Assembly: GCA_963666315.2 (NCBI GenBank)
Contig: CAXXHG010000043.1
Span: forward strand, 416,001 to 480,000
From: Candidatus Binatia bacterium
GTDB taxonomy: Bacteria; Desulfobacterota; Binatia; Bin18
Reading direction: 5' to 3'
Length of the DNA: 64,000 nucleotides
Numbering within the stretch: the stretch's first letter is position 1; every line of letters starts with the position of its first letter. Under the pieces are notes generated by a model, which saw only the letters and a list, made by a program, of their open reading frames with translations, searched no databases and was not told the origin of the DNA. Below are positions 2,001 through 53,125 of the stretch, in pieces. The position numbers and the translations under genes are program-made.

Positions 2001-3517
2001 AGAACCGGTAATTGGAGTGACCCTGTCCGTATGTATCTCCAAGAGATGGGAAATATCCCTCTCCTGAGTCGCGAAGAAGAGGTGACGGTTGCCAAAGAGA
2101 TCGAGGCAGGAGAAAAGCACATTCGCCAAGAGATATTCTCAGCACCTTTAGCGCTCCAATATATCTTGTCGCTCGGCGAGCGCCTTAAGCGGGACGAAAA
2201 CGAAGCACGGTTTATTTTCGGTGATGAAGGGGAAGGTGATGAAGAGGAGGGTGCTGAGGCAACGAGAAAAGAAGATCCACGCATTGAGCTTTTCTTGAGC
2301 CGCATGGGTCCCCTGAAACGGCTTGCTGGAGAACGGGAGAAGGCCGAGAAACTCTCCCTCAAGCGCAGCCCGGTGAAAGAACGAGAGAAGGTGCTCAAGC
2401 GACTTATCGATCTACAGGGGAAAGTCAGAACATCGCTCGACGCTCTGCCTCTAGGCCGACGCCATATTACGATTGTTGTCGATAAATTGAAGGAAGTGGG
2501 CCTTCTCCTGGAAAAGCAGACCAGGACGATCAGACGCCAGGAGAGTCTGCACAATTGTCAGGCGTCCGAAATCCTCGCTCTTTCCCGTATCTACAAGAAT
2601 GGCGCCCCACGAGACGCGAAAGAAGGCAAGGAATCCAGTAAGGCGGCCCACGCACAAAAAATCCGAGAGGCAAGCCAAATCATCAAGAATACCCGAAAAG
2701 AGATCCAGCGCATTGAGGACCGACTTGGGACAAATATGGAAAAGATGCGTCGATCTCTCGCCGTCATTGCCCAAGGGGAGGCTCAAGCCCAGGAGGGGGA
2801 AACGCCGTGTTAATCGAGGCCAACCTGCGCCTTGTAGTGAGTATTGCCAAGCGCTATGTCAACCGTGGCCTTGGCTTCCTCGACTTGATCCAGGAGGGGA
2901 ATATCGGACTCATGCGCGCGGTTGAGAAGTTTGAGTATCAACGCGGATATAAGTTCTCAACGTATGCAACGTGGTGGATTCGCCAGTCTGTGAGTCGGGC
3001 GATCGCTGACCAAGCCCGGACGATCCGTATTCCGGTGCATATGATTGAGACGATCAATAAGGTGCTCCGGACCTCTCGCTATCTTGTCCAGCAGCTCGGC
3101 CGCGAACCCTCTCCAGAAGAAATTGCGGCGCAAATGGAAGTGCCGCCAGATAAGGTCCGAAAAGTCCTGAAGATAGTGAAAGAACCCGTCTCGCTGGAAA
3201 CACCCATTGGGGATGACGAAGAAAGTTCGCTCGGTGATTTTGTTGAAGACCGCCAAACGCTCTCTCCAGCCGACGCCGCCATGGCCCTCAGTTTAGAGGA
3301 GCAAACCCGCAAGGTGTTAGCCACGCTGACGCCGCGTGAGGAACAGATTCTGCGGATGCGGTTTGGGATTGATGAAAAGACGGACTACACGCTTGAAGAA
3401 GTTGGACAGCGGTTTGCGGTGACACGAGAACGTATTCGTCAGATTGAAGCAAAGGCGCTCCGGAAGCTGCGTAACCCAACACGAGCCAAGAGTTTAGAGG
3501 CTTTCATTGATGGCTAG
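1722..3517 (+). CDS. rpoD: RNA polymerase primary sigma factor RpoD, split by frameshifts (~1760, ~1910, ~2020, ~2800) that are probably sequence errors
   Basis: Region 1.1 remnant [15 protein letters not shown], region 1.2 [11 protein letters not shown], region 2 [48 protein letters not shown], region 4 [20 protein letters not shown]. Confidence 0.97.
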
Positions 3518-7183: not shown

Positions 7184-7876
7184 ATGAAGGTGAACGCGAT
7201 CATTGTTGCGGCAGGAAAAGGCGAGCGCATGCAGAGTGAGCTGCCCAAGCCCTTCCTGTCTGTCGCCGGCAAACCGATTCTCGTGCATACCCTACGGCGT
7301 ATTGAGCAGGTGGCCGCAATCAGCCGTATCGTTGTTGTGGTTGCCCCTGAACGTGAAGCATTATGCCGTGAGCTGTTGCGCTCTCACGGGTCGTTTCGGA
7401 GGCCGATTGTCGTCGTGCATGGAGGCGCAGAACGGCAGGATTCGGTGCGCAAGGGCTTAGCTGGGCTTGAAACAGGCTGCGATATCGTCGTTATTCATGA
7501 CGCAGCTCGGCCGTTTATTGCGGTCAGGACCATTGAGCAGAGCATTACGGCGGCGGCTGAGTCGAGTGGTGCAATAGTTGCGATCCCGGCCCGGGATACC
7601 ATTAAACGCGTCAGCGCTCAGCATTTTATCTGTGAGACTGTTTCACGCTACGACCTCTGGCTGGCCCAAACCCCACAGACGTTTCGGGTTGCGGCCATTC
7701 GAGAAGCGCACGAAAGGGCTCTGCAATACGGCATATCGGCAACGGATGATGCCGCTCTTGTTGAGCAAATGGGGCAACGTGTTCGCATCGTTTTGGGTGA
7801 GGCTGGCAACTTTAAAATCACTACCCCGGACGATCTCGTTGTGGCTGAGGCACTCCTGCAAAGCAAGCCGGGCTAG
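7184..7876 (+). CDS. ispD: 2-C-methyl-D-erythritol 4-phosphate cytidylyltransferase
   Basis: AAGKGERM, PKPFL, GGAERQDSV, IHDAARP, QTPQTF, TDDA, NFKITTPDDL. Confidence 0.97.
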   Translation: MKVNAIIVAAGKGERMQSELPKPFLSVAGKPILVHTLRRIEQVAAISRIVVVVAPEREALCRELLRSHGSFRRPIVVVHGGAERQDSVRKGLAGLETGCDIVVIHDAARPFIAVRTIEQSITAAAESSGAIVAIPARDTIKRVSAQHFICETVSRYDLWLAQTPQTFRVAAIREAHERALQYGISATDDAALVEQMGQRVRIVLGEAGNFKITTPDDLVVAEALLQSKPG

Positions 7877-9018
7877 AGGCGCTCAAAATGTCGCGGAACC
7901 TGAGCCCCTTCGAGTCGGAGCCAGGCCGGTGGCTTCAAACCTTCAGCGCCTACCTCCTGTGTCTCATTGACCTTGATCTTGAGGCGGAGATTATTGACAC
8001 TGTCTGCATTACTCAGTGCTTGGTCAAGACCAATTAAGCCGTTGCTGTAGAGGTCGAAAAGGGCCATATCAAACGTCTGACAGCCCTCTAGTTCGGCTTG
8101 CGCCATCGCCTCTTTCAGCGTATCGACTTCACGCCGTTTGATCAGCGCTTTGATACGCGGTGTATCAAGCAGAATCTCTAACGCAGGGACACGCCGGTTG
8201 TCGGTTCCCAGGACTAAGCGCTGTGAGATGATGGCCCGAAGGTTGAGGGAAAGCTGGAGAAAGATCTGGGCATGTTGGGATTCCGGAAAAAAATTGATGA
8301 TGCGATCAAAGGATTGGTTCGCGTTCGTCGAGTGCAGCGTCGCAAGGCATAAGTGACCGGTGTCCGCAAAGGTGACGGCGGCTTCCATCGTGTCCCGATC
8401 CCGGATTTCGCCGATCAGAATGACGTCTGGAGCCTGACGCATCGCGCTCTTGAGCGCGGCCTGAAACGAGTGGGTATCTGACGTGACCTCTCTTTGGTTC
8501 ACAATCGACTTCTTATGGCGGTGAACAAACTCAACCGGGTCTTCAATCGTAATGATATGGCCCGAGGTAGTGCTGTTCCGATGGTCTATCATAGCTGCCA
8601 ATGAGGTTGACTTTCCTGAACCTGTTGCACCAACGACTAAGATGAGACCACGCTTGGCCAGCATGATATCTTTGAGAATGGAGGACAGTCCTAGATCGTC
8701 CAATGTTGCGATGTCAAAGTTGATTTTACGCACCACCATGCCGACCAAGCCGCGCTGTCGAAACACATTCACCCGGAAACGACTGAACTCGCTGTAAGAG
8801 AGCGCAAGATTCATTTCCCATTGTTCAGTAAATTCCTGCCACTGCTGGTCATTCATAGTTGAGCGGGCAAGGACCTCCATATCGGACGGAGTGAGCATCT
8901 CTCCTCCGAGGGATTGGGTGCTACCCTCGATCCGGTACATGGGCGAAGTCCCGACAGTCAGATAAATGTCTGACGCGTTGTGACTCACCATAGTCTCAAG
9001 GAGGGGTTTTATATCCAT
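7873..9018 (-). CDS. pilU: Type IV pilus retraction ATPase PilU
   Basis: GATGSGKSTS, TIEDPVE, AMRQAPDVILIGEIRD, TLHSTNANQ, RIINFFP; directly downstream of pilT. Confidence 0.93.
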   Translation of the reverse strand: MDIKPLLETMVSHNASDIYLTVGTSPMYRIEGSTQSLGGEMLTPSDMEVLARSTMNDQQWQEFTEQWEMNLALSYSEFSRFRVNVFRQRGLVGMVVRKINFDIATLDDLGLSSILKDIMLAKRGLILVVGATGSGKSTSLAAMIDHRNSTTSGHIITIEDPVEFVHRHKKSIVNQREVTSDTHSFQAALKSAMRQAPDVILIGEIRDRDTMEAAVTFADTGHLCLATLHSTNANQSFDRIINFFPESQHAQIFLQLSLNLRAIISQRLVLGTDNRRVPALEILLDTPRIKALIKRREVDTLKEAMAQAELEGCQTFDMALFDLYSNGLIGLDQALSNADSVNNLRLKIKVNETQEVGAEGLKPPAWLRLEGAQVPRHFERL

Positions 9019-9034
9019 GTGCTGCTCCGTTTCT

Positions 9035-10114
9035 CTATCCACGCAGGGCCATGCGACCGGTTGTCTCGGCCCGTCCAAAAAGGTTGGGGGTCATACTCTT
9101 GGTCTGTGCTTCTTCTGCGGTAATGAGGCCGCGGGCGGCGAGGTCCATGAGCGCCATGTCCATTGTTTGCATGCCGTCTTTTTGGCCGACCTGCATAGCA
9201 GAAGGGATCTGATGCACTTTCCCTTCTCGGATCAAATTACGGACTGCAGGGGTTGGAACGAGGCTCTCTAAAGCCGCGGCGCGTCCGCCCGCTTTCTTTT
9301 TGCACAGGATTTGAGTGATGATGGCTTCAATGGAGTCGGCGAACTGGGTGCGGATCTGGGCTTGCTGGGCCGCCGGGAATACGTCGACAATACGGTCAAC
9401 GGTTTGGGCAGCGCCAGGTGAGTGTAAGGTGGCAAAGACAAGATGGCCCGTTTCGGCTGCGGTGATCGCGAGCTGAATGGTTTCCAGGTCACGCATTTCA
9501 CCGACGAGGATGATATCCGGATCTTCACGTAAGACTGCTCGGAGCGCATTGGCAAAGGAATGGGTATGTACGCCGAGTTCGCGTTGGGTGACGAGACATT
9601 TCTTCGACTAGTGGGTAAATTCAATCGGATCTTCAATCGTGATGATATGGCCTTCAAAGTCGTCATTGATGTGATAGACCATGGCGGCTAGGGTGGTCGA
9701 TTTTCCCGATCCTGTTGGTCCGGTGACGAGGATGAGTCCTTTTTCGCGTTTACACAGTTGCTTCAAGAGCGGCGGCAGACCAAGTTTTTCAAACGAAGGG
9801 ATTTCCGTCGGAATCGTCCGGAAGACTGCGCCTTCCCCACGCTGTTGCATAAAGACGTTGACCCGGAAACGTCCCACGTCACCCATATCAAACGAGAAGT
9901 CCAGCTCGAGCGTCTCCTCAAAGTCGTTGCGTTGGCCGTCATCCATAATGTCATAGATGAGAGCGTGCACTTCATCGCGAGAAAGCGCTGGGTGATCCAG
10001 ACGCTTCATACGACCGTCGAGCCTGATCATGGGTGGTTGCCCGCTGCTCAGGTGAACGTCTGAGGCTCCTGACTGAATCGCGAAGGTCAGCAATGCGGTG
10101 ACATCAATAGACAT
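9035..10114 (-). CDS. pilT: Type IV pilus retraction ATPase PilT with one in-frame TAG at 9608-9610
   Basis: GPTGSGKSTT, TIEDPIEFTH*SKKCLVTQRELG, LREDPDIILVGEMRD, AETGHLV, AVRNLIRE; both halves are in the same frame. Confidence 0.93.
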
Positions 10115-10289
10115 GAAAATCCCTTCCACCGTACAGTACAAAAGATCGCGGTTTCCTGTGGGAACTTTACTAAGAAAAGTCATACAGGACAAGCATTTTT
10201 CTACCCAATATCTGCCGCAATCTGTCTCTATGCACTCTCCCTCGCATGTGGTAAGCCAGACGTTCTATTTTTTTACGAGGAGGCACGGC

Positions 10290-11105
10290 ATGGGATACGA
10301 GGCTATCGTGTATGAGAAGGTCGAAGACAAGATCTCCCGTGTGACGCTTAACCGTCCGGAGAAACTGAATGCCATGAGCCGCCAGCTCCTGTCCGAGCTG
10401 GACGATGCGTTGGATGAGTTCGAGCAGGACAATGACGCGAGCGTATTGATTATCCGTGGGGCGGGCCGCGCTTTCTGTGCCGGGTATGATTTGCAGCCGG
10501 TTTCCGGGCCGGGCGGGAGATTTACTGTCACCAGTGATCGCTGGGGATTGCGAAAGATCGTTGCACGTTGGCAGCGCTTATGGAATCTACCCAAGCCGAC
10601 GATTGCTCAGGTGCACGGGTATTGTCTGGCTGGAGCGACCGAGCTTGTTGGGCATTGCGACATCGTCTTTGCCGCAGACGATGCCCAGTTCGGTCACCCG
10701 GCTGGGCGTTCGCTTGGCGTGTTACCCTCGCTTGCGATGTGGCCGTATCTTATGGGAATGCGCAAAACAAAAGAGTTTCTTTTCACCGGAGACTCCATGA
10801 CGGCAGCACAGGCGCTGGAAAACGGCTTGATTAACCGCGTCTACCCCAAGGACCGGCTTGAGGAGGAAGTGCTGGCGTATGCCCGCCGTGTAGCGACGGT
10901 CCCGGTAGATTTACTGACCCTGCATAAAGCAGCCACAAATCGTTTTTTCGAAGCCATGGGCCTGTATACCGCAGAGCAATCGGCAACGGAATTTGATGTT
11001 ATTGCTCACCAGACGGTCACGGTCAAAAACGAGGTCAAGAAGATGATGGAGCGAGGGCTTAAAGAAGCACTGCGGGACCGAGATCGACCGTTTGCCAAGA
11101 AATAA
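10290..11105 (+). CDS. Enoyl-CoA hydratase/isomerase (crotonase) family protein
   Basis: TLNRPEKLNA, GRAFCAGYDL, KPTIAQVHGYCLAG; GGAGG RBS before ATG 10290. Confidence 0.92.
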   Translation: MGYEAIVYEKVEDKISRVTLNRPEKLNAMSRQLLSELDDALDEFEQDNDASVLIIRGAGRAFCAGYDLQPVSGPGGRFTVTSDRWGLRKIVARWQRLWNLPKPTIAQVHGYCLAGATELVGHCDIVFAADDAQFGHPAGRSLGVLPSLAMWPYLMGMRKTKEFLFTGDSMTAAQALENGLINRVYPKDRLEEEVLAYARRVATVPVDLLTLHKAATNRFFEAMGLYTAEQSATEFDVIAHQTVTVKNEVKKMMERGLKEALRDRDRPFAKK

Positions 11106-11136
11106 GGTGAGACCTCGACGAGATGAGATCTCAACT

Positions 11137-11829
11137 ATGAATGGTCGTCGCATCTACCTCATGCGCCATGGCGAAACCCTCTACCAACGTGTGGCAAACG
11201 AGGGGGCACTTGGCAATGGCGCACTCACCGAACGTGGGCAAGAGCAGATCGCAACAGCGGCTCTTTTATTTCGTGCCGTTGCTCTTGATGCAATATACAC
11301 CAGCCCGCTTGAGCGTGCATATGAAACCACCCAGATTATTGCCAAGGAAAAAGAGCTGGACATTCAGGTTGCGCCAGAGCTCAGCGAGATTATTCCCAGC
11401 GATGCAGTGCTCGAGCAAAAGAGTCTTACGGAGATATTCAAGGATATTCAGGAATTCTTTAAGAACGCAGACTCAGACTGGGGCGAATCGTACTTGGGGG
11501 GTGAGAGTTTTCAGCAGGTGTATGAGCGCGCTGGTCGATTTCTCAAGACTCTCCTGAGCAAGGATGACTGGCAAACGCTGCTCCTCGTCGCGCATGGGGG
11601 AGTGAACAATGCTTTTTTAGCCCACGCTACAGGGACAACGAGTGGACGGGTGTTCAATATTGAGCAGGACTTTGGGTGCATAAACATCATAGACTTTGCC
11701 AGGAATCGACCTTTTCTTCGCTTAGCCAATTTTACCCTGTACGATCAGCTCAAAATCAACCTTCGAGAGCACAGCTTGGATATCATTCTTAATCTGCTTA
11801 GAGGTCGAGGGGTTATTGATCCTGATTGA
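11137..11829 (+). CDS. Histidine phosphatase (phosphoglycerate mutase) family protein
   Basis: RHGET, SPLERA, GGES, VAHGG. Confidence 0.9.
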   Translation: MNGRRIYLMRHGETLYQRVANEGALGNGALTERGQEQIATAALLFRAVALDAIYTSPLERAYETTQIIAKEKELDIQVAPELSEIIPSDAVLEQKSLTEIFKDIQEFFKNADSDWGESYLGGESFQQVYERAGRFLKTLLSKDDWQTLLLVAHGGVNNAFLAHATGTTSGRVFNIEQDFGCINIIDFARNRPFLRLANFTLYDQLKINLREHSLDIILNLLRGRGVIDPD

Positions 11830-11978
11830 GCGGGAATAAGAAGAAAAATTTCCCGACTTTCTGGGCGGCTCATCCTCTAGCAGGCCTCTGGATTTCCCTA
11901 TGTCATTGATTCTCATAAAAGAATTAGAATGAGGTAAGGAGAAAAAGGAGAAATTGTCGAAAAAGAAGGTACGGTGGC

Positions 11979-12021
11979 TTGATTTCTTTTCTAATCTATC
12001 TTATCTAGTTTAATTAGACTA
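11979..12021 (+). promoter_or_regulatory. Putative promoter with overlapping palindrome TAGTTTAATTAGACTA (candidate PadR operator)
   Basis: TTGATT at 11979; 14/16 palindrome at 12006-12021 just upstream of padR ATG in an AT-rich intergenic region. Confidence 0.45.
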
Positions 12022-12039
12022 ATTCATAAGAAACCAACA

Positions 12040-12696
12040 ATGAGCGTCCAACTTGTCGTCCTAGGGCTATTATCTGAGAAGCCGAGTCACGGTTATGAAC
12101 TGCGACAAGAGGTCGAGCGTCGGTTGTATGCGTCATATATCAACCTCAGCGGAGGGTCACTCTACTACAACCTGGGGCAACTGGAGCGCGCCGGCTACGT
12201 AGAGAAGACTCGAGTAGAGCAGAAGGGACGCTATCCTGCCCGTCAAGTCTACCAAATTACGCCGGGGGGCAAAGAATATCTCCAGGCTGAGTTGCGACGC
12301 CTCTTATTCAATACTGAAGAACGAGACAAGGTTTTTGATCCGCTCAATACCGCCCTGGCCTTTGGCCACTTCCTGAAAAGGGACGAGTTATATACCGCGC
12401 TCCAAAGCCATCTGGAGTGGGCGCAGAAAAGGCTGGCCTGGGTGACTGAGCAGCAAGCGTATTGGGGTGCCCAGAGTGCAACATTGCCGCAAGTCCAGAT
12501 TATTGAGCATGGGCGTGCTCACTTCAAAGCGGAAATCACTTGGCTCGAACAATTTCTGGGTATACTTGAAACACAAGACGGTCAGGAGTTAGAGGCGAAC
12601 ATGTCCCTTGGCGTCTCTTCTCCCGAAGCGGAGGAGGCGGTTGAACAAACGCGTAAAAATCCCATACAAGAGGAGGGTCCAGTATGGAAGGTCTAA
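12040..12696 (+). CDS. PadR family transcriptional regulator with C-terminal helical domain
   Basis: VLGLLSEKPSHGYEL, GSLYYNLGQLERAGYV, RQVYQITPGG. Confidence 0.92.
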   Translation: MSVQLVVLGLLSEKPSHGYELRQEVERRLYASYINLSGGSLYYNLGQLERAGYVEKTRVEQKGRYPARQVYQITPGGKEYLQAELRRLLFNTEERDKVFDPLNTALAFGHFLKRDELYTALQSHLEWAQKRLAWVTEQQAYWGAQSATLPQVQIIEHGRAHFKAEITWLEQFLGILETQDGQELEANMSLGVSSPEAEEAVEQTRKNPIQEEGPVWKV

Positions 12697-13328
12697 GTGT
12701 CCTCGATATGATTCAGCAGGGGTGGTACATCACCTATCCCCTGATTGTGATGTCTATGGTTATTATCACGATTATATTTGAACGAATATTCGCTCTGCGT
12801 GGACTGATCGCCGGCACTCTCCAGACTGCCGGCGGGCTGGTTGGGCAATTACAGAAAGGTGATTTCCAAACGGCCCTTGCCACCGCCGAGGAGAATCAGA
12901 AAAAGCCGGCCGGCCGCATATTTCGCGACGTCATTTCCCAACAAGAGGGGGAATCTCTTGAATATCTGTCTGAAGTCATTGAGAACCGACGCTTCGAGGA
13001 AATCGAAGCACTCAAAGGCAGCATCTGGGTCCTGGGAACAGTCGGTGTGAGTGCGCCCTTCATCGGGCTACTCGGTACCGTCATCGGGATTATCAAATCC
13101 TTCACAAGTATGGCGGTTGAGGGCAGCGGTGGTTTTGCGGTTGTTGCCGGTGGTATTTCTGAGGCCCTGATTGCAACGGCTCTTGGCCTCGCAGTCGGGA
13201 TCATTGCGGTGATCTTCTACAATTATTTTCATACCAAACTTGAGCGGATCGAGGCGGCAATGACGATCAGCTCGGACCGTGTCCTCGAAGCAGTCCGTCT
13301 CGGGAGGAAAGCTCATGGGAATGGCTAG
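12684..13328 (+). CDS. MotA/TolQ/ExbB proton channel protein
   Basis: APFIGLLGTVIGIIKSF, GGISEALIATALGL; three TM segments. Confidence 0.93.
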   Translation: MEGLSVLDMIQQGWYITYPLIVMSMVIITIIFERIFALRGLIAGTLQTAGGLVGQLQKGDFQTALATAEENQKKPAGRIFRDVISQQEGESLEYLSEVIENRRFEEIEALKGSIWVLGTVGVSAPFIGLLGTVIGIIKSFTSMAVEGSGGFAVVAGGISEALIATALGLAVGIIAVIFYNYFHTKLERIEAAMTISSDRVLEAVRLGRKAHGNG

Positions 13329-13734
13329 TCCACGCAAGAAGAAGGCGAGTGGGTCTGCCATTATGGCCGAGATCAATATCGTTCCCTTGTGCGACATCTT
13401 TCTGGTGCTACTAATCATCTTTATGGTGACCAGCGTGGCGATGGTCCAATCCGGAGCGCATATTACTCTGCCCGAGGTTCAAGAGACCGATTCCGAGCCG
13501 CGACAGATTGTCATTACAGTCACGCCACAAAAAGAGATCTTTGTGAATGCCAGACCTGTGAAAATGATCGAACTCGAAGTGGCGCTTCGTCAGCTTATAA
13601 TGGCAAAGCCAGACGTACCGGTCGTACTCGAAGGTGATCAGGATGTCATCCTGGGGGAGGCTGTAAAAATCCTCTCCATTGCGCAGCGAGCTGGGGCAAC
13701 CCAGGTCGCAATTGCTGCCCGGCAAGCGGGCTGA
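13315..13734 (+). CDS. ExbD/TolR biopolymer transport protein
   Basis: AEINIVPLCDIFLVLLIIFMV with conserved TM Asp; VVLEGDQ. Confidence 0.93.
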   Translation: MGMASPRKKKASGSAIMAEINIVPLCDIFLVLLIIFMVTSVAMVQSGAHITLPEVQETDSEPRQIVITVTPQKEIFVNARPVKMIELEVALRQLIMAKPDVPVVLEGDQDVILGEAVKILSIAQRAGATQVAIAARQAG

Positions 13735-13768
13735 AAAGTGTAAGCGACCTCGTATCCCAAGGAAGGGC

Positions 13769-15010
13769 ATGGTTATGGCTGCATCCGAGGAAAATACGAA
13801 AACACCCGAGGAATCTTCGGTCGAGCGCAAAATCCAAGAGGACCTGTGGCTGTCTCGGGGCGGGGGATTTGGCAAAAACGCGCGGTGGTTTGCCTTCTCG
13901 ACCGCGGCCCATATCCTGGTCTTGTCCATATTTGCAACGACGGCTGTGACCATCATGCGAGAGCCGGAAATGATTAAGGTCAAAGCCTTACCGCTGACGG
14001 CAGAAGAGCTGGCGGCCATGGAGGAGGCGGGGGATGATGATTGGGAGGGCGAGCCGTCCTTGGAGGATATTCCGGGCATCCTGACCATGGAGGATCTGGC
14101 TCTGAGCAAAGCCCGGCCCACTGGGCCGGCGTCAACCGGCCCCCTTCAGGCACCCATTCAACGGGCAGCTATTCCGGTCTTCCAGGGGCATGGTCTTGTC
14201 ACGATAGACGTGAAGCGCCCGGACGATAGCTTCTCCGGCTTCGCAACCCAGCTGAGCGGTCTGGTCGGAACTGAAAATTTTGGTGGTGGCGGGTTTGGCG
14301 ATTATGGCCGAGGGCTGCGTAAGGTTGGTCTTGATGTCGCCTTGGTGATTGATGCCACGGACAGTATGCAGTTTGTCATCGACTCGGTACGCAGTCGATT
14401 GACTAAATTGGTGACTCTCTTGCGCAAGCTCGTACCGACCTCGCGCATCGGCATTGTGACTTACCGCGATAGAGGCGAAGAGTATGTGACGAGGTGGGTG
14501 GACTTGAGTTTTTCGACTTTGAAGCTGAAGAATTTTCTGGCTAATCTGCATGCGGATGGAGGAGGGGACTGGCCCGAGGCTGTCTATGAGGGCCTGGACG
14601 CGGCGGTGAATGATCTGAGTTGGCGTAAACGCTCACGTCGTGTTGTCGTCCTCGTTTCCGGCTCTCCGCCGCACCCGGAAAGTATGGGTGGCGTCCTGAG
14701 TTTGGCCCAGGGATTCCAGTCTCGTGGCGGAGTCGTGAGTGTGATGGACCTGGCCGAAAAGATGCACGAAGACTTTGAATACGCCCTGTGGGAACAGACC
14801 GGCAAGGTTATGAACGTCCCCTTTGAGCCCACTCCTTTGCCTGGATTTTATCGAGACTTCCGGAATACGATGGCATCGGTAGCGCAAGCGGGTGGTGGAG
14901 ACTTCATCCCGCTGACCGAGGAGAAGGTGCTGACCAGGAATATTATTATCATGACCTTCGGTTCGCGTTGGGAAGTGGAAATGGCGAAATATCTGCGAGA
15001 CTTGGAATAG
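13769..15010 (+). CDS. Membrane-anchored VWA-domain protein with TonB/TolA-like SxxxH transmembrane helix
   Basis: TM WFAFSTAAHILVLSIF; acidic/Pro/Gly-rich linker; VWA LDVALVIDATDSM..GGGDWPEAV..LSWR..PPH. Confidence 0.85.
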   Translation: MVMAASEENTKTPEESSVERKIQEDLWLSRGGGFGKNARWFAFSTAAHILVLSIFATTAVTIMREPEMIKVKALPLTAEELAAMEEAGDDDWEGEPSLEDIPGILTMEDLALSKARPTGPASTGPLQAPIQRAAIPVFQGHGLVTIDVKRPDDSFSGFATQLSGLVGTENFGGGGFGDYGRGLRKVGLDVALVIDATDSMQFVIDSVRSRLTKLVTLLRKLVPTSRIGIVTYRDRGEEYVTRWVDLSFSTLKLKNFLANLHADGGGDWPEAVYEGLDAAVNDLSWRKRSRRVVVLVSGSPPHPESMGGVLSLAQGFQSRGGVVSVMDLAEKMHEDFEYALWEQTGKVMNVPFEPTPLPGFYRDFRNTMASVAQAGGGDFIPLTEEKVLTRNIIIMTFGSRWEVEMAKYLRDLE

Positions 15011-15155
15011 CGGGATAGTGCGCTGTGGAATGGTAATATGCAAAAGGACGCTCGTGCACCTCGGTGCAAGGGGCTCTCTTCATGTCATGCCGGGGATGGA
15101 AAGTCGGAGCTTTGGGCGCAAAATGAACACTAGAATATAAAAAAGGAGTACGAGC

Positions 15156-17558
15156 GTGCGGCGTCTGGTTTCCATTATCGGCATGGTGTCTCTTGTGATG
15201 AACATGGGGGCTCTGACCTCTGAGGTCCAGGCCGCCTCACTCTCTGAGCTGTCTTCGCGCGCAAAGCAGGCCCGCAGTAAGGTCAATGGGCTGAAAAAAG
15301 GTGGCTGGAGCGCCCAAGAAAAGATCGAAGCCATTCAAATACTTGGCCCTGTTGCGCTTGATTTTGTGGCGGTTCCCAATCTGGCCGCATCGGTCAAAAC
15401 GACGTCTGGTAGAAAAGCGGTCCGCGCCGTCTACGAGACGCTTTATGGTCCACTCAACCATATCTACACAGGCAGTTTCCTGCGCATTGACCAAATGACG
15501 AAGCAGGTCATTGCGCAGGATGGTGACCTAGAGGCCGTGCAAGACTCACAGGCATACCAAGCCGAACAGGGTGTTGCTGCGCGCTCCTTGTATTTCTTGA
15601 ACCACCTCAACTACATCGGCTCGTTCGCGTTTGACGACGAGAAAAAGAAGGAACTGCTCCAGAAGGCGATGAATGGATATTCCGAGTTCGCTGTGGGGGA
15701 TCAGGCCTCGCGACTCAAAAACGAAAGTTTGTTTTTTCGGGCGCTGTGCGAACGCGAACTCCAGAAATTCGACTGGGCAGTCCGCGATTTCGAGCTGCTC
15801 TTAAAACAGGGCAGATTGTCCGCAGACATGCGGCGTAAAGCCCAGCGAGCGTTGGCCCAGACGCGTAAATTCGCTAAGAGTGGTGGCAAGATTCAGTCCT
15901 CTCCTACGGACTTGGCTCTGGCTAATCATCAAAAAGCGAAGAGCTTCCTAAAGCAGAGTCGTAAGGCGAGCGGTAAGAAGCGGCGCACCCTACGGGGTCA
16001 GGCGCTCACATTGATTCTTGAGGTCCGCAAGGCGGGTGGCAAGTGGACGGTGCGGGCGGATGAGCTGGCCAGGGCAGAGCTGACGGCTGAAGAGCAACTC
16101 GCACTCGCGGAACATATATATCCCTTTCCGCCGTGGCTGAAAGCTAAAGAGCTTATGAAAAAACGCCGCTTTGCCAAGGCGGTGCCTTTTCTGGAGGAAG
16201 TCCTGGCATCAAACGAACCAAATGCCGCTGTGTACAAAACCGACGCGCAGTATTACCTCGGAGTCGGGCTGTATGAACAACGTCGGTATCGAGAGGCCAT
16301 TGCGAAATTGGACGCCTTTCTCCTCAATGGGGGGGCAGAGACCAAGCGCGCGTCTGACGCGGAATATTTCCAGTTCAAGTCAGCCGAGTCGCTGTACGCT
16401 GGGGACCAAAGCGACCGAACGGCAAAGATCTACTTGAAAGCAATTAACGACTACACCCGGAAATATCCGAAACACCGCTCCATATACGAGGCGCATTTTC
16501 GACTTGGTGAGTACTATCAGGATAAGAAAAACTATCTGAAGGCGGCGGGTGCGTATAAAAAGGTAAGAGGACAGCAAGCGTATCGCGTCCGCGCCGACTA
16601 CGCGACCCTTCAGTCATACTTTGAAGTTTTGCACGCCATCGAAGACGGAGACACAGGGAGCGGGCTGAGTGAGGATGACCTTCGGCAGCGGATAGGGGAG
16701 AGCCTCGATGCGTTCTGGAAAAATAACGCCAAGCTGGCCGAGAGTAGTCCGAAGCTCGCCAAACGCGATCCATACCGTGAATATCCGGGTAAAGTCGGGG
16801 TGATGAATGCGGTGTATTTGAGCAAGGATACTGATGCAAATGCGGCCCAAATCGTCTCCTTGCTTGACGGCTTTGAAGAGAAATACCCCAAGCAGCCCGA
16901 CGCCTTTGAAACCGTGGCGCGGACGCGGCTGATTGCTCTGCAGAAGACGGGGCAATACATCGAGTTGGAAAAGGATGTGGATAAGATTTTTGCTCGTTTT
17001 CAACCCGAACAGCAAAAAGAACTCCTCGTCGGCCTGGCCGGCGTCTTAGAGAGAGATGTCCGCAAACTCCGCCGTAAGAATGATCGTGACGGCGAACTCG
17101 CTGCGAAGCGGACGCTCACCCGGCTGCACGTAGACCGACTCGAGAATGGTGGGGACTTTGCCGACGACGAATCCCCGGATCGATTCCGGTACGATCTTGC
17201 CCAGCTCTATCTCGATACCAAACAATACGACGAGGCCGAGGTCCTGTATAAAGACCTGGAACAAAAACAGGGTCCGTACTCGCTGGTGTCACTCGTCGGC
17301 TTGGCCCAAATTGCCGAGGTCAGGGGTAATAAAAAGCTGTCTTTATCGCTCTGGGAGGGCGCGCTCAAGGGGACTCACGTGGGCGATCCGCTCTGGTTTC
17401 GGGGCACGTTTGAGGTGGCGCGGCTTAACGGCGATATTGGCAATGCTGACCAAGCGTGCAAGACCGTTAGCAGCGCCCAGCGTATGCTTCATCGTCTCGG
17501 TGATCAAAAACTCAAGGCCAAGATTCAGGACTTTGCTAGCCAAACGTGCGGGGTGTAA
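15156..17558 (+). CDS. Large exported tetratricopeptide-repeat protein (800 aa)
   Basis: Signal peptide ending VQA; TPR-like units AQYYLGVGLYEQRRYREA, AHFRLGEYYQDKKNYLKA, YDLAQLYLDTKQYDEA. Confidence 0.8.
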   Translation: MRRLVSIIGMVSLVMNMGALTSEVQAASLSELSSRAKQARSKVNGLKKGGWSAQEKIEAIQILGPVALDFVAVPNLAASVKTTSGRKAVRAVYETLYGPLNHIYTGSFLRIDQMTKQVIAQDGDLEAVQDSQAYQAEQGVAARSLYFLNHLNYIGSFAFDDEKKKELLQKAMNGYSEFAVGDQASRLKNESLFFRALCERELQKFDWAVRDFELLLKQGRLSADMRRKAQRALAQTRKFAKSGGKIQSSPTDLALANHQKAKSFLKQSRKASGKKRRTLRGQALTLILEVRKAGGKWTVRADELARAELTAEEQLALAEHIYPFPPWLKAKELMKKRRFAKAVPFLEEVLASNEPNAAVYKTDAQYYLGVGLYEQRRYREAIAKLDAFLLNGGAETKRASDAEYFQFKSAESLYAGDQSDRTAKIYLKAINDYTRKYPKHRSIYEAHFRLGEYYQDKKNYLKAAGAYKKVRGQQAYRVRADYATLQSYFEVLHAIEDGDTGSGLSEDDLRQRIGESLDAFWKNNAKLAESSPKLAKRDPYREYPGKVGVMNAVYLSKDTDANAAQIVSLLDGFEEKYPKQPDAFETVARTRLIALQKTGQYIELEKDVDKIFARFQPEQQKELLVGLAGVLERDVRKLRRKNDRDGELAAKRTLTRLHVDRLENGGDFADDESPDRFRYDLAQLYLDTKQYDEAEVLYKDLEQKQGPYSLVSLVGLAQIAEVRGNKKLSLSLWEGALKGTHVGDPLWFRGTFEVARLNGDIGNADQACKTVSSAQRMLHRLGDQKLKAKIQDFASQTCGV

Positions 17559-17582
17559 ATCGGGCCGAGGGGGCCTGGCAAT

Positions 17583-17616
17583 ATCGCAATATCAAGCGAC
17601 CAAGCGATATTGCGAT
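17583..17616. repeat. Perfect 11-bp inverted repeat ATCGCAATATC-N12-GATATTGCGAT
   Basis: Seen directly between the TPR gene and the symporter gene. Confidence 0.8.
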
Positions 17617-17672
17617 CAGCGATTCCCCCCACAGAATATTGCGCTTCCCTTGCATCGCCCTAGAATAAGGCG

Positions 17673-19592
17673 ATGGTCGATCTCCTGATCGTTCTCGCAT
17701 TTGTCCTGTACGCCGTTTCCACAGGACTGCGGGCGCGCAAGCGTGCTTCACAAAACCTGTCTGAATACTTCCTGGCGGGTAAAACCCTGACTGGGTGGCG
17801 GGCAGGGGTCAGCATGGCAGCGACCCAATTTGCTGCCGATACGCCGTTGCTGGTCACGGGTCTGATTGCTACAGGCGGTATCTTCCTCGTCTGGCGATTG
17901 TGGATTTATGGTCTGGCCTTCTTACTCATGGGCTTTGTCTTTGCGGCGGGTTGGCGGCGTACGGGGGTAGTGACGGATGCGGAACTCGCGGAACTGCGCT
18001 ACAGCGGGCCAGGGGTCCTGGCCCTGCGTGGGCTGAAAGCGTTGTACTATGGCACAGTCATTAACTGTGTCGTTATCGCCATGGTGTTGGTTGCCGCCCT
18101 GCGTATCGCCGAAGTGTTTCTTGTGTGGCACGCTTGGCTCCCGACCGGACTGTACACGAGTTTTTCTCAGGCGATTCAAGGCTTGGGGATTTCTCTTGCT
18201 TCAGGGGCAACTGGTCTCGATGCGTCTATTGCGACGACAAATAATTTCATCAGTATTATTGCTCTGGTGAGTTTTACTGCCTTCTATTCTACCGCTGGTG
18301 GGCTGCGCAGTGTTGTCGCGACAGACATTGTCCAATTTTTTCTGGCAATGGCAGGCACGCTTATCTATGCGTGTGTGGTGATCGCCCACATCGGCGGATT
18401 GGAAGAACTCCCGAAGCAGCTTGCCGCACACTACGGGGCCGAGGCTGCTGAGGCGATGCTCTCTTTTACGCCCTCTCAAGGCGAGGTGCTGATGCCCTTC
18501 CTCATCCTGATCAGTTTGCAATGGTTCTTCCAAGTCAGTAGCGACGGGAGCGGTTATCTGGCGCAGCGCGCCATGGCGTGTAGAACAGACCGTGAGGCGC
18601 GGATCGCAGGGCTGGTGTTTGCCTGGCTGCAGATCGTCGTGCGCAGCCTGCTCTGGCTGGTGATTGGGGTCGGCCTCTTGGTCATTTATCCTTTTAACCC
18701 TGTTGACCTTGCTGATATTGCGAATGGTGGAGGTGAACAGTTCACTGCGAGCCGTGAGCTTGTCTTTGTCACTGGGATTAACGACCTGCTGCCTACCGGC
18801 GTGCGCGGTGTCATGCTGGTTGGTCTTTTAGCCGCCCTGGCCTCAACTATTGATACACATATGAACTGGGGAGCTAGCTATTGGAGTAACGATCTGTATA
18901 AACGCCTGCTGTGTCAGGCCTGGCTGCAACGGGAAGCCCAGAATAAGGAACTCGTTTTTGTGGCGCGTGTGTCGAATATCCTCGTGCTCGGCATTGCGCT
19001 TATCATCATGACCCAGCTCGGTTCGATCCAAGCCGCCTGGTCTGTCTCGCTGCTCTTTGGGGCAGGGACAGGCGCCGTCCTGGTGCTGCGTTGGCTGTGG
19101 GAGCGCATTAATGTATTTTCTGAAATTGCAGCCATGCTGGTCTCCTTGATCGCTGCACCTATCCTGCTCATGACTGTTGATGCCGAATGGCTACGTATAG
19201 CGGTCATGGGTGGCCTTTCGACCCTGGCCGCCATCGGGATAACATTTTTTTCTCCTGCAACCGAACATGCTGTGCTGGACCGCTTCTATCAACGTGTACA
19301 GCCCCTCGGCTTTTGGCACGACACTGCCCTACGCATGGGGGATGATCCCGACATGCCGCTGCGACGATTTTTCCGTGAGCTGAAAAATACGATACTGTGT
19401 GCGTTGTCCCTTTTCTTGACGCTCATCGGATTTGGAAAATTGCTCGTCCACTCGGCTGACGAGTCGAGCCTATGGGCGTGGATTGCTCTTGGCGTGGCGG
19501 CTATGCTGGTTCCGTTTTGGTGGCGTGCTGCGGGAGCATCGCCCCGCCAGGGTAGCGATGCGGGACCGGATGAGAAAATGATGTGTGGGTAA
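17673..19592 (+). CDS. Sodium:solute symporter (SSS) family transporter
   Basis: EYFLAGK, SMAATQFAADT, GGLRSVVATDIVQ, YLAQR, ASTIDT; ~14 TMs. Confidence 0.92.
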   Translation: MVDLLIVLAFVLYAVSTGLRARKRASQNLSEYFLAGKTLTGWRAGVSMAATQFAADTPLLVTGLIATGGIFLVWRLWIYGLAFLLMGFVFAAGWRRTGVVTDAELAELRYSGPGVLALRGLKALYYGTVINCVVIAMVLVAALRIAEVFLVWHAWLPTGLYTSFSQAIQGLGISLASGATGLDASIATTNNFISIIALVSFTAFYSTAGGLRSVVATDIVQFFLAMAGTLIYACVVIAHIGGLEELPKQLAAHYGAEAAEAMLSFTPSQGEVLMPFLILISLQWFFQVSSDGSGYLAQRAMACRTDREARIAGLVFAWLQIVVRSLLWLVIGVGLLVIYPFNPVDLADIANGGGEQFTASRELVFVTGINDLLPTGVRGVMLVGLLAALASTIDTHMNWGASYWSNDLYKRLLCQAWLQREAQNKELVFVARVSNILVLGIALIIMTQLGSIQAAWSVSLLFGAGTGAVLVLRWLWERINVFSEIAAMLVSLIAAPILLMTVDAEWLRIAVMGGLSTLAAIGITFFSPATEHAVLDRFYQRVQPLGFWHDTALRMGDDPDMPLRRFFRELKNTILCALSLFLTLIGFGKLLVHSADESSLWAWIALGVAAMLVPFWWRAAGASPRQGSDAGPDEKMMCG

Positions 19593-23332: not shown

Positions 23333-24079
23333 ATGCCAACACAAGTGGATTCACCGGGTATTCTGTATTTCATTGAACAAGGCGGGGTGTTGATGTACCT
23401 CATCATCCTGTTGTCTATTTTTGCTCTGGCCATTGTGCTGGTCAAGTTCTGGGGATTGTGGCGTTTTCGGTCCCAGTTGGAGCAGCTCAGCCAGCGGCTT
23501 AGCCTGCACGCTCAGGGAGCTGGACACGACTCCAGCAAAGAGGCGCACCTGGCTGCCGCACTACAAATCTGTAGCGAGGATAACTCTCCGCTGGGTAGGT
23601 TATTCGAGACTGCTTTTCTGTATCGTGCAGAAGGGCGGACTGAACTGACCCACCGCCTCGAACGGTTTGGTGGGGACGTAGTGGCGGGGCTGGAGTCATA
23701 TATGACCGCCCTGGCCAGCGTCGTTGGGGTTGCGCCCATGCTGGGATTCCTCGGCACGATTATCGGTCTGGTTGAAGCCTTTATGAGCTGGGAGACGCTC
23801 GGGGGGCAGATTACGGTAGGCGTGTTAGCCGGTGGTATTTATAAAGCCATGCTGACCACAGGAGCAGGCCTGTGTGTCGCGATTCCATACTTCTTGTTGT
23901 ACAACCACCTCACTATGCGGGTGCAGGCCTTGACCCGTTTGACTGAAGCGCGGACCGAAGAACTCCTGGATACGCTGACCGAGACGAAGGCGCACGCAGC
24001 GGTCCAAGAAGCGGCATCCGAAGCGATGCCGGGAGCGGGGCAAGTGCCAACGCGGGAGCTGACACGTCATGCGGTTTAA
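23333..24079 (+). CDS. Second MotA/TolQ/ExbB protein
   Basis: QGGVLM, APMLGFLGTIIGL, GGIYKAMLTTGAGLCVAIP. Confidence 0.92.
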   Translation: MPTQVDSPGILYFIEQGGVLMYLIILLSIFALAIVLVKFWGLWRFRSQLEQLSQRLSLHAQGAGHDSSKEAHLAAALQICSEDNSPLGRLFETAFLYRAEGRTELTHRLERFGGDVVAGLESYMTALASVVGVAPMLGFLGTIIGLVEAFMSWETLGGQITVGVLAGGIYKAMLTTGAGLCVAIPYFLLYNHLTMRVQALTRLTEARTEELLDTLTETKAHAAVQEAASEAMPGAGQVPTRELTRHAV

Positions 24080-24488
24080 ACCAGGGTCCAAAGTTTTGGC
24101 GAGTATGGAGCCGCTTGCGCTCACAGACATCATCATCAATATGTTCATCTTCTTCTTTATTACTTTCAGTTTCCTGGCCACGTTTGAAAAAACGCGCGAA
24201 GGCCAGGTGAATGTCAATTTGCCCAAAGCTACGTCGGCCACGCCTCCGGTAGAAAAGAAACGTCTGAATGTCAGCCTGAAGAAAGACGGCGGGCTGTTCC
24301 TCGGTGACACGCCGGCAACTATTGAAGACCTCGAAGCGCGCTTCAAGGCTGAAAAGGCCCAAGGAGCAGACGTAATCCTGGTCATTCGGGCGGACGGCGA
24401 TGTTACTCATAGCCGGGTGGTCCAAGTGATGGACCTTGCCCGAATCGAAGGGCTGAATCGCTTGGCCATAGCAACGCAGAATAGATAA
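24069..24488 (+). CDS. Second ExbD/TolR protein
   Basis: LTDIIINMFIFF, VNLPKA, VIRADGDV..VVQVMD. Confidence 0.92.
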   Translation: MRFKPGSKVLASMEPLALTDIIINMFIFFFITFSFLATFEKTREGQVNVNLPKATSATPPVEKKRLNVSLKKDGGLFLGDTPATIEDLEARFKAEKAQGADVILVIRADGDVTHSRVVQVMDLARIEGLNRLAIATQNR

Positions 24489-24582: not shown

Positions 24583-25461
24583 ATGTCCCCGTGGCAAGAA
24601 CATAACCTGGGCGAAATTACACAACGCCTCGCCCCACTCTGTCGTTCTCCGCAGGGTGTTCTGTTTGAGCAGTCATCTCTCAACAATCACATTGTCGTCC
24701 GACATGGACGGGGACAGATTCTGCTGTGCTATCGACACACGGGGCACCGTATCGAAGAGGTCCAATCTCGGCTTGATCCCACTCATCCGCTCAGGCTGCT
24801 CTCCCCTTACACCCAGGCCATGATGCTGGCGCTGCTCTGGTGTCGGCAGCCACAACGCATTTTGCTTATTGGTCTTGGTGGCGGCCGGCTGCAGCTGGTA
24901 CTACACCACCTGCTTAAAGACGCACGGCTCGCAACCGTTGAACTCGATCCTCTTGTTCTTGAAGTTGCCCGGCGCTTCTTTGGTTTCCTGCCTGATGAAC
25001 GTCAGTGCGTTTCGCTTGCAGACGGGAGAGCCTTTTTGCGTGAGGAGTCGGCTCATGCCCAGTATGATTTGATCTTTCTGGATGCATACCAGGCCGAAGG
25101 TGTCCCGTCTCATATGATAACGCTTGAATTCTACGCTGAATGTCGTGCACGCCTTTGTCCCAACGGGTTGGTTGTTGCCAATCTGCATTCTTCCACGCCG
25201 GTGTATGATGCCTCACGCACGACGTTTGCCGCAGCGTTCAGATATATGACGGCTTTCTCTGTTTCGAGTGGTAACGTCGTTGTTTTGGGGAGCGAAGAGA
25301 CGCCGCTTGATCCCCGGGCACTCCGGAAGCAGGCCCGTATGGCGGAGGAATTCTACGGCGGGGTTCTTCCGTTTTCAACGTGGGCGAGGGATGTCTCTTT
25401 ACGCGCGCCATATCGCAATAACGCGCGGATACTCCAGGATAGCGTTTCGGTATCGGTATGA
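24583..25461 (+). CDS. Spermidine synthase-like SAM-dependent methyltransferase
   Basis: ILLIGLGGG, VELDP, DGRAFL, YDLIFLDAY. Confidence 0.85.
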   Translation: MSPWQEHNLGEITQRLAPLCRSPQGVLFEQSSLNNHIVVRHGRGQILLCYRHTGHRIEEVQSRLDPTHPLRLLSPYTQAMMLALLWCRQPQRILLIGLGGGRLQLVLHHLLKDARLATVELDPLVLEVARRFFGFLPDERQCVSLADGRAFLREESAHAQYDLIFLDAYQAEGVPSHMITLEFYAECRARLCPNGLVVANLHSSTPVYDASRTTFAAAFRYMTAFSVSSGNVVVLGSEETPLDPRALRKQARMAEEFYGGVLPFSTWARDVSLRAPYRNNARILQDSVSVSV

Positions 25462-30029: not shown

Positions 30030-30369
30030 ATGACAGTGAAGATAAGAACGGGCAGTCTCTTGGTCATTGCGGTGTTTGCCCTGAGTGCCTGCTCACAGCC
30101 ACTCTCAACGCGTGAGAAGGGGACATTAGCTGGGGCAGGCCTAGGTGCGGCAACCGGCGCGATTATTGGGGCGATGGTCGGCAGCCCCTGGGGCGGGAGC
30201 GGCCATAGGCGGCGCCCTTGGCAGTGTGACCGGTGCGGTGGTGAGTGATAAAATACAAAGCCAAGAAACGCAACAGACTGAGCAGCAGCGGCAGCTTGAA
30301 CAGCAACGACACGAGATCGAGCAACAACGTCGAGAGCTCGAAGATCTCAAACGACAACAAGAATACTAG
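30030..30369 (+). CDS. Glycine-zipper lipoprotein (frameshift near 30190)
   Basis: Lipobox LSAC; GAGLGAATGAIIG..GAAIGGALG; Gln/Glu coiled-coil tail; AGGAGG RBS. Confidence 0.8.
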
Positions 30370-30388
30370 ACACGAGAAAGCATTGGCT

Positions 30389-31099
30389 ATGAAAAAGGCA
30401 GTTCTGCATGGGTGTGTTTTAATGCTCGTCCTCGTGGTTGGTTGTTCACAGCCTTTATCGACGCGTGAGAAGGGGACATTAGCTGGAGTAGGCCTGGGTG
30501 CCGCAGCTGGCGCGATCATTGGGGCGGCGCTCGGCAGCCCCGGAGCGGGAGCGGCTATTGGCGGCACCCTTGGCGGCGTGACTGGTGCGGTGGTGGGTGA
30601 CCGGTTTCAAAAACGGGATAATGAAATCGCAGGCAATGAGCAACAGATTGAGCAGCGACGACAAGAAATCACCCGCAACCGTCGCCTCCTCGAAGAGCTG
30701 AAGAAACGGAATCTTGAGGCGCGCGAGACCGAGCGTGGAGTGGTGGTGAATCTGCCCGATGTCTTGTTCGAATTCGGCCAGTCCGATTTGACGAAGGATG
30801 CGCGTATCCACGTTCAGAGCATTGCCGAGGTACTGAATAATCAGGCCAATGGACGCCGCGTATCGGTTGAGGGTCATACCGACTCCGTTGGGAGCGACGA
30901 GGCGAACCAACGGCTGTCGCAACGACGTGCCGACGGCGTCGCGGGTACGTTAGCCGCAGCCGGTGTGGACCAGGGACGCATTGCCACAACCGGCTATGGC
31001 GAGCGCTATCCGGTCGCACCGAACACAAATCCGGACGGGTCGGATAACTCATCTGGGCGGGCCAAGAATCGCCGCGTTGAAGTCGTAATCGAGAACTAG
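30389..31099 (+). CDS. OmpA-family lipoprotein with glycine zipper
   Basis: Lipobox VVGC; VLFEFG, VEGHTDSVG, NQRLSQRRA, GYGE, NRRVE. Confidence 0.93.
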   Translation: MKKAVLHGCVLMLVLVVGCSQPLSTREKGTLAGVGLGAAAGAIIGAALGSPGAGAAIGGTLGGVTGAVVGDRFQKRDNEIAGNEQQIEQRRQEITRNRRLLEELKKRNLEARETERGVVVNLPDVLFEFGQSDLTKDARIHVQSIAEVLNNQANGRRVSVEGHTDSVGSDEANQRLSQRRADGVAGTLAAAGVDQGRIATTGYGERYPVAPNTNPDGSDNSSGRAKNRRVEVVIEN

Positions 31100-32647: not shown

Positions 32648-32669
32648 GGTTTCAAAGAGAACAAACGTA

Positions 32670-34220: not shown

Positions 34221-34224
34221 GCGA

Positions 34225-53103: not shown

Positions 53104-53125
53104 CCAAGCTCTCATATGGACGGCT

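Follow-up and report, generated by a model that had tools for sequence, protein, structure and literature searches.

To our knowledge, Ton and Tol are the only well-understood periplasmic users of 5:2 motors of the ExbBD/TolQR type, and a third user, whose head is a VWA (von Willebrand factor A) domain, was proposed only in 2025. The main text of that proposal (Williams-Jones et al., Mol Biol Evol 2025, PMC12204202) predicts vWA force transducers with Tichowtungia aerotolerans as the reference locus, and describes their architecture as a transmembrane helix bearing an SHLS motif, a disordered stretch that contains a motor box, a domain II roughly 100 residues long and a C-terminal domain of vWA type, their genes adjoining tolQ-like, tolR-like and TPR (tetratricopeptide repeat) genes. 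There the class is reported in Proteobacteria, Planctomycetes, Verrucomicrobia, Bacteroidetes and Rhodothermaeota, AlphaFold3 models put the helix His on the motor, and vWA/TPR co-occurrence "suggests interaction", the TPR interaction itself not being modelled. Here we describe a locus in a 64,000-nucleotide (nt) stretch of a Candidatus Binatia bacterium (the window; contig CAXXHG010000043.1, positions 416,001 to 480,000) which, compared with the architecture and synteny described in that main text, is a Binatia-type member of the class. We consider it likely that the locus encodes a four-gene vWA force transducer system driven by the proton motive force, to which a PadR regulator has been added in this clade.

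The open reading frames (ORFs) and Pfam place five genes on the + strand within 12040-17558. They encode a PadR-family transcriptional regulator of 218 aa with a C-terminal extension (12040-12696; Pfam PadR, E 9.7e-18), an ExbB/TolQ-like proton-channel subunit of 214 aa (12684-13328; MotA_ExbB, E 1.8e-31), an ExbD/TolR-like subunit of 139 aa (13315-13734; ExbD, E 1e-26), a TonB/TolA-like transducer of 413 aa with a VWA head (13769-15010; VWA_4, VWA_2 and VWA) and a secreted TPR solenoid of 800 aa (15156-17558; TPR families only). The exbD ORF opens at GTG 13279, with the conserved start near ATG 13315, where the tblastn alignments in related loci begin; the transducer ORF opens at TTG 13679, and its likely start is ATG 13769. 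The padR and exbB genes overlap by 13 nt and exbB and exbD by 14 nt (start 13315) or 50 nt (start 13279), while gaps of 34 nt and 145 nt precede the VWA and TPR genes respectively. By Pfam, neither the five proteins nor the flanking genes have a TonB_C, TolA, TolB, Pal or TonB-dependent receptor domain. A first-pass annotation of the DNA had listed these same parts and overlaps, and had noted an operon without TonB_C, TolB, Pal or TonB-dependent receptor; all of this is borne out. It had also called the system undescribed, which has to be withdrawn, a motor-coupled vWA transducer class with a co-occurring TPR gene being already predicted in the main text of PMC12204202. A promoter and terminator scan of 11700-17800 was uninformative on the operon limits, giving three promoter-like sites (mean of shuffles 3.9) and six terminator-like sites (mean 6.7), with no predicted site in any + strand intergenic gap.

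The four genes that follow padR form a unit that recurs across genomes. A scan of one genome per species, covering 185,579 species genomes, yielded 344 matches to the pattern; a relative is encoded in 209 of them, and the best 80 of these 209 loci were examined. ExbB-ExbD-VWA-TPR is collinear in 72 of the 80 by tblastn of the window proteins, in keeping with the conserved neighbourhood on which the first-pass annotation had counted. Five loci (L025, L038, L043, L069, L077) end at contig edges with an order that agrees, and three Myxococcales loci (L072, L073, L079) read VWA-ExbB-ExbD(-ExbD)-TPR, Pfam finding two ExbD paralogues in L073 and L079 and one ExbD in the window and Binatia-type loci. 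By name the 80 comprise 44 Binatia/Binatota, 11 Deltaproteobacteria, 5 Myxococcales, 2 Thermodesulfobacteriota, one each of Methylomirabilota, Proteobacteria, Margulisiibacteriota and Desulfurellales, 8 called just "bacterium" and 6 with implausible placeholder names; one of them (L001) is about 99% identical to the window. In a protein collection clustered at 90%, 295 relatives of the VWA protein were found at E <= 1e-3, those with names coming from Binatia, Methylomirabilota and "Deltaproteobacteria" metagenome-assembled genomes. Binatia is not named in the main text of PMC12204202 or in one of its supplementary text files; the locus shows that the class, as a compact and strictly conserved unit of four genes, reaches into Binatia and uncultured lineages related to them.

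PadR is a different matter. Its gene lies upstream of exbB in 35 of the 80 loci, all with a VWA identity of at least 53%; the 40 loci that are more distant lack it. There is no other conserved neighbour in those distant loci either, and therefore the conserved unit is the four genes, PadR being a clade-specific addition. Five flanking ORFs from three loci of the PadR-less clade were compared with the other loci; three match no other locus and two match one each. The PadR control that the first-pass annotation had envisaged is only partly supported by this distribution.

Counted from ATG 13769, the transducer has a cytoplasmic N-terminus, a transmembrane helix, a disordered linker and a VWA domain. 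The helix, residues 37-63 (13877-13957, +; FAFSTAAHILVLSIFATTAV), as modelled by AlphaFold2, bears an SHLS-like motif composed of S44 (codon 13898), H48 (codon 13910), L52, F/L55 and T/A/S59, so that the Ser and His of the single transmembrane segment are where the first-pass annotation had put them. In an alignment of the window transducer with 78 locus proteins (n=79, the basis of all residue counts given here for the transducer), S44, H48 and L52 are each found in 79/79, with members down to 37% identity; position 55 is F in 51 and L in 28, and position 59 varies among T, A and S. Of the 80 loci, 79 have SxxxH, and the remaining one is 5'-truncated. With an invariant Ser and His, and with the same order of the four genes in 72 of 80 loci, motif and gene order go beyond chance, and SxxxH is a conserved hallmark of the family.

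Just after the helix, residues 69-74 (IKVKAL; 13973-13990, +) have an alternating, β-strand-like pattern, I-[RK]-V-K-[AVI]-[LVI] across the family (V71 in 77/79), and we regard them as a putative motor box in the sense of the main text of PMC12204202. The linker that follows is acidic and rich in Pro and Gly, about 115 residues long, with a predicted local distance difference test (pLDDT) value below 50 over most of 64-181 in an AlphaFold2 model from the family alignment. Within it lies a conserved linear motif, residues 92-105 (14042-14083, +; WEGEPSLEDIPGIL), which is predicted to sit on the TPR protein. Its pattern is [DE][DE]W-E-G94-x-P96-S97-L98-x-D100-x-x-G103-x-L105, the marked positions being conserved in 68-77 of 79 sequences (G94 75/79, S97 77/79, D100 75/79, G103 76/79, L105 77/79).

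Set beside the class as the main text of PMC12204202 describes it, the window transducer shares the SHLS-type Ser/His helix, a disordered linker of about 100 residues and the C-terminal vWA fold, and its gene likewise adjoins tolQ-like, tolR-like and TPR genes. It differs in having one tolR-like gene rather than a heterologous pair and one transducer rather than two, in the gene order tolQ-tolR-vWA-TPR with the TPR gene downstream (and, in this clade, PadR upstream), and in a linker that carries a family-specific motif.

A profile of the transducer reaches a wider family of 11,560 representative clusters at E <= 1e-3, 372 of them at E <= 1e-30, and the matches include Planctomycetota proteins with both an SxxxH helix and a VWA domain. 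A hydrophobic SxxxH segment occurs in 77 of the best 150 representative clusters, whereas the W92-L105 motif does not extend beyond the closest family, a strict pattern matching 7 of the best 150 clusters. Among 15 larger relatives that were scanned, eight have an FHA domain and one a Ser/Thr kinase domain N-terminal to VWA, and all nine of these (9/9) have a hydrophobic SxxxH segment. Such fusions suggest a phospho-signalling input to transducers of this kind in other phyla. The larger distant relatives from outside the window are P0255, P0264, P0174, P0186, P0188, P0203, P0235, P0243, P0256 and P0224; the kinase fusion is P0224 (Ser/Thr protein kinase), and relatives of P0255, the ones with a named source, come from Planctomycetota.

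These relatives bear on topology. Placement of the VWA domain outside the cytoplasm, behind an N-in helix, is supported by their cytoplasmic FHA or kinase domain, which lies N-terminal to VWA in proteins with a hydrophobic SxxxH, by the AxA-type signal peptides with which TPR orthologues start, and by the Cys residues that these orthologues keep (C768, invariant in the TPR family, and C798, at least 90% conserved). A cytoplasmic VWA domain, which would have undone the first-pass annotation, is thus disfavoured by the position of the FHA and kinase domains of relatives on the N-terminal side of the SxxxH helix. Within the cytoplasmic N-terminus of the transducer, residues 20-30 (about 13826-13858) form a conserved acidic-Trp patch with an invariant D25 (QEDLW in close-clade members, RFDPW in distant ones), which might contact the cytoplasmic part of ExbB.

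The motor is a 5:2-type stator of the ExbB/TolQ family and an orthologue of neither ExbB nor TolQ. Against NCBIfam models the ExbB-like protein scores 108.3 bits for TolQ (cutoff 221) and 76.3 bits for ExbB (cutoff 206.2), both below cutoff, and the ExbD-like protein scores 81.5 bits for TolR (cutoff 127.3) and 54.9 bits for ExbD, below the equivalog cutoffs. Residues T132, E160 and T165 of the ExbB-like protein align gap-free with positions 148, 176 and 181 of solved E. coli ExbB, which we take to be functionally important residues of the proton path, and the transmembrane D27 of the ExbD-like protein (start 13315) aligns with the Asp of EIN(I/V)xPxxD in solved ExbD/TolR chains. The alignments show that the two proteins keep the predicted proton-path residues, and the ExbB/TolQ-like subunit is expected to form a pentamer.

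Because the TolQ and TolR scores stand above those for ExbB and ExbD, and because the system has its own TPR protein, predicted to sit on the middle region of the transducer as in Tol-Pal, the locus could be read as a divergent Tol-type machine for envelope maintenance, in which the VWA protein replaces TolA and the TPR protein acts like CpoB/YbgF on transducer domain II, coordinating envelope or peptidoglycan work. CpoB binds TolA, and the TPR protein does have a weak YbgF/CpoB match (TIGR02795, 38.3 bits against a cutoff of 90.1, residues 330-433 only). That match covers little of an 800-aa solenoid, however, the CpoB model having about 119 positions, and the motor scores all lie below the equivalog cutoffs. 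Neither a TolA C-terminal domain (domain III) nor TolB nor Pal is found in the operon or in the related neighbourhoods scanned, and a repressor-type regulator in one clade, together with the narrow spread (209 stretches in 185,579 species genomes), is unlike a housekeeping division system. We consider the Tol-type reading unlikely, and on these scores and absences place neither the motor in the Tol-Pal family nor the TPR protein in the CpoB/YbgF family.

The likeness to Ton is in the motor and the helix: the window proteins have an ExbB/ExbD-family motor with the conserved Thr, Glu and Asp, and a transducer with an N-in transmembrane helix containing Ser-x3-His and a flexible linker. One could therefore imagine an energiser of Ton-like import, its VWA head engaging an outer-membrane receptor or channel encoded elsewhere and its TPR protein serving as a chaperone or adaptor; in L076 a gene for a TonB-dependent receptor does lie two genes upstream of padR. 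That is the only such gene in the nine loci scanned by Pfam, however, and no other neighbour is conserved. Unlike TonB, the window transducer has no TonB_C domain, its head being VWA. TonB uses β-strand augmentation, and we know of no VWA domain that performs it, which weighs further against import. We find the Ton-like reading very unlikely and leave the locus out of the Ton family.

The VWA domain itself occupies residues 179-413 (14303-15007, +) by Pfam, fold and conservation. AlphaFold2 models the fold over about 183-413 with pLDDT means of 10-residue blocks mostly at 77-92, lower near residues 231-250 and at the C-terminus. The domain has a non-canonical site resembling a metal ion-dependent adhesion site (MIDAS), made up of D195-x-T197-x-S199, G264-G-G-D267 and S299-P-P-H302, in which D195, S199, G264-G-G-D267, E270, P301 and H302 are each conserved in 79/79 and T197 in 78/79. 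The best Foldseek match of the transducer is BatB (3ibs_A, E 2.7e-10, target-normalised template modelling (TM) score 0.66), followed by 4jdu (an aerotolerance-related Bacteroides membrane protein, E 1.9e-09) and by integrin and ANTXR I domains, with a Foldseek probability of 1.00 for BatB and the integrin I domains. These two Bat-type structures are the closest solved folds to the window VWA domain, at target-normalised TM scores of 0.64-0.68 and only 15-16% identity. Searched against PDB sequences at E <= 0.01, a profile of the transducer family matched none, so that sequence comparison reveals no solved relative.

In the Bacteroides aerotolerance operon, too, membrane VWA proteins occur together with TPR proteins. 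With the closest solved folds being the VWA domains of BatB and of an aerotolerance-related membrane protein, and with FHA or a Ser/Thr kinase fused to the helix-VWA unit in relatives, there might be no force transduction at all: the VWA-TPR pair would be a static Bat-like or signalling complex, and SxxxH would localise it near the motor or sense the state of the motor. But the motor genes are collinear in the great majority of loci (the 72 of 80 noted above), Pfam finds no MoxR-type ATPase in the motor operon, and a disordered linker with a strand-like motor box, here a putative one, is what TonB and TolA have. We know of no ExbB/ExbD motor for Bat. We judge this static or signalling reading distinctly unlikely, and the low identity to BatA/BatB and the lack of a MoxR ATPase in the operon led us to set the Bat family aside. 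The Myxococcus Agl-Glt machinery with CglB, as described in PMC9946355 and PMC11761067, also combines a TolQR-type motor with an envelope complex that includes VWA and TPR proteins; CglB is there an outer-membrane lipoprotein, whereas the window VWA protein is anchored in the inner membrane by its SxxxH helix, and the Agl-Glt family was likewise set aside, Glt genes being absent from the operon.

We return to the force transducer reading and to the fourth gene of its unit. The TPR protein has a signal peptide that ends in VQA, before AS, with no lipobox, and its AlphaFold2 model is one long all-helical solenoid (mean pLDDT 90.2). Foldseek of this model returned generic TPR scaffolds only, at TM scores of 0.13-0.26, and no specific structural neighbour; we drew no functional lead from these matches, which include TTC7B, Ski3, Ctr9, a Campylobacter flagellar periplasmic scaffold (rank 15) and LbcA (rank 34). 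Look-alikes in the ESM Atlas are TPR proteins of 760-1060 aa, with Planctomycetota the commonest phylum and one Kiritimatiellota cluster; we take them as no more than a lead.

Using the family alignments, we predicted the complex that residues 27-689 of the TPR protein form with residues 80-413 of the transducer, a Mg ion being included. The complex scored 0.71, 0.68 and 0.68, and the best control 0.00; of 157 solved complexes 116 attain this mark, and of 215 mismatched pairs 2 do. The runs share at least 20% of contacts, and partner pLDDT is at least 69. On the transducer, the modelled interface takes in linker residues 91-105 (all), 107-108 and 112-115, then 141-182, and in the VWA domain 223-224, 247-249, 252 and 286-288. 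On the TPR protein it takes in 65-80, 108-129 (with the invariant D122 and L125), 138-235, 404-415, 442-456, 479-493 and 539-630. Positions of the TPR chain that are at least 90% conserved are enriched at the interface (22 against 10.3 expected, hypergeometric p = 1.3e-4), and 7 of the 9 contact residues in the VWA domain are at least 96% conserved. The model thus supports the TPR protein as the likely partner of the transducer, as the first-pass annotation had ventured, even at the lower score of 0.68 against the control. The same annotation had the VWA domain grip its partner through MIDAS, and here the model points elsewhere. In the AlphaFold2 order of secondary structure the three VWA contact patches follow alpha1, beta3 and alpha4, whereas the MIDAS loops follow beta1, alpha3 and beta4; by this fold topology the patches would lie on the face opposite the MIDAS loops. 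The predicted contacts are therefore those of the linker motif and a MIDAS-distal VWA face, and the interface does not support the MIDAS site as the grip on TPR. This predicted TPR clamp on the linker motif and MIDAS-distal VWA face is what the model adds to the class; its confirmation would make the TPR protein the first assigned partner of a transducer of this kind.

By analogy with Ton and Tol, the ExbB pentamer would receive the SxxxH helix on its outer side, and the periplasmic ExbD dimer would catch the strand-like segment 69-74. Proton flow could then pull on the transducer linker, while the TPR solenoid, according to the complex model, would clamp the W92-L105 linker motif and the MIDAS-distal VWA face, the MIDAS-like face staying free for an envelope ligand. 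In this way the motor would load or remodel a periplasmic VWA-TPR assembly. As to its role, for which the uptake, remodelling and adhesion named by the first-pass annotation are guesses, we think envelope anchoring or remodelling more likely than nutrient import. A more specific version, which we offer as a tentative possibility and would not expect to hold in full, is a clamp gated by the proton motive force: at rest the TPR protein would wrap W92-L105 and the back of the VWA domain, and a pull on the linker would strip or reshape this clamp, so that the MIDAS-like face, or else the TPR scaffold, would alternate between binding and releasing an envelope target. If this were true, the proton-gated clamp would add to Ton import and Tol outer-membrane stabilisation a third functional class of TolQR/ExbBD machine, one wired to Ser/Thr phospho-signalling in other phyla through the FHA and kinase fusions.

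Several points weigh against a VWA-headed force transducer that engages its TPR partner as modelled. The class described in the main text of PMC12204202 is itself predicted only, and no deletion phenotype is reported there. The calibration counts for the complex prediction hold only roughly here because of the custom alignments and the riding Mg ion. On the transducer chain, conserved positions are not enriched at the interface (18 against 15.3 expected, p = 0.23). The motor box is only a sequence pattern, and the AlphaFold2 monomer model shows coil with pLDDT <50 and no strand there. The charge flanking the transmembrane helix is not decisive for transducer topology. The scanned neighbourhoods of the loci hold no conserved outer-membrane partner. 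Metal binding by the VWA domain is uncertain, to judge from its residues: a canonical MIDAS combines D-x-S-x-S with a Thr and an Asp from two further loops, whereas the window site has Thr for the first Ser, Asp for Thr (GGGD267) and no Asp after beta4, with S299-P-P-H302 at the usual place of the Asp.

The PadR protein of the window matches its Pfam model at 64.4 bits (cutoff 27) and Vir_act_alpha_C weakly. Upstream of its gene, alignment of 13 PadR-bearing loci reveals only one conserved part, a promoter-like block (11979-12021, +) with TTGATT at 11979-11984, a 17-nt spacer and TATCTA at 12002-12007; the consensus promoter scan did not list it. A palindrome search finds a dyad, TAGT-N8-ACTA (12006-12021, +), that overlaps TATCTA and may be the operator of PadR. 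Autoregulation of the operon by PadR in this clade would probably act through this dyad, which overlaps the -10 element. Further upstream, a gene of the histidine phosphatase family (11092-11829, +) is found throughout the PadR-bearing clade (L002-L036, L076), in some loci with an extra gene between it and padR (GST in L029), and an enoyl-CoA hydratase gene (10098-11105, +) precedes it in the window and in L029.

The window has a second pair of motor genes, ExbB-like (23333-24079) and ExbD-like (24069-24488), both on the + strand, with no evident transducer. The pair is followed by a spermine/spermidine-synthase-like gene whose product lacks a transmembrane helix (24583-25461, +), and between it and the TPR gene lie genes for a symporter and a molybdopterin oxidoreductase and a small gene. 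In 11 loci (L022-L024, L026, L029, L031, L032, L035, L036, L038, L076) the TPR gene is directly followed by a second ExbB-like gene; by Pfam, L029 and L076 have ExbB and a synthase-like gene next to the TPR gene, L076 also ExbD.

Other features of the window lie apart from the motor operon. On the - strand, 31205-35750 encodes a cluster of an ABC ATPase, an ABC-2 permease, an ABC_transp_aux protein and a DUF4340 protein, which we take to resemble the gliding-associated transporters of the GldA/GldF/GldG type; adjoining it is the gene for an OmpA-family protein with a glycine-zipper domain (30245-31099, +). Encoded at 51985-54721 (+), and unrelated to the motor operon, are a MoxR-type AAA+ ATPase (Pfam bpMoxR, E 3.9e-58) and, after it, a VWA protein of 531 aa. 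Two genes appear split, which may reflect frameshifts or assembly indels: a second PilT-like ATPase, in ORFs 9608-10192 and 9035-9496 (-) that lie in different frames, next to an intact one at 7873-9078, and a sigma-70 gene, in + strand ORFs 2031-2813 (region 1.2) and 2807-3517 (regions 2-4).

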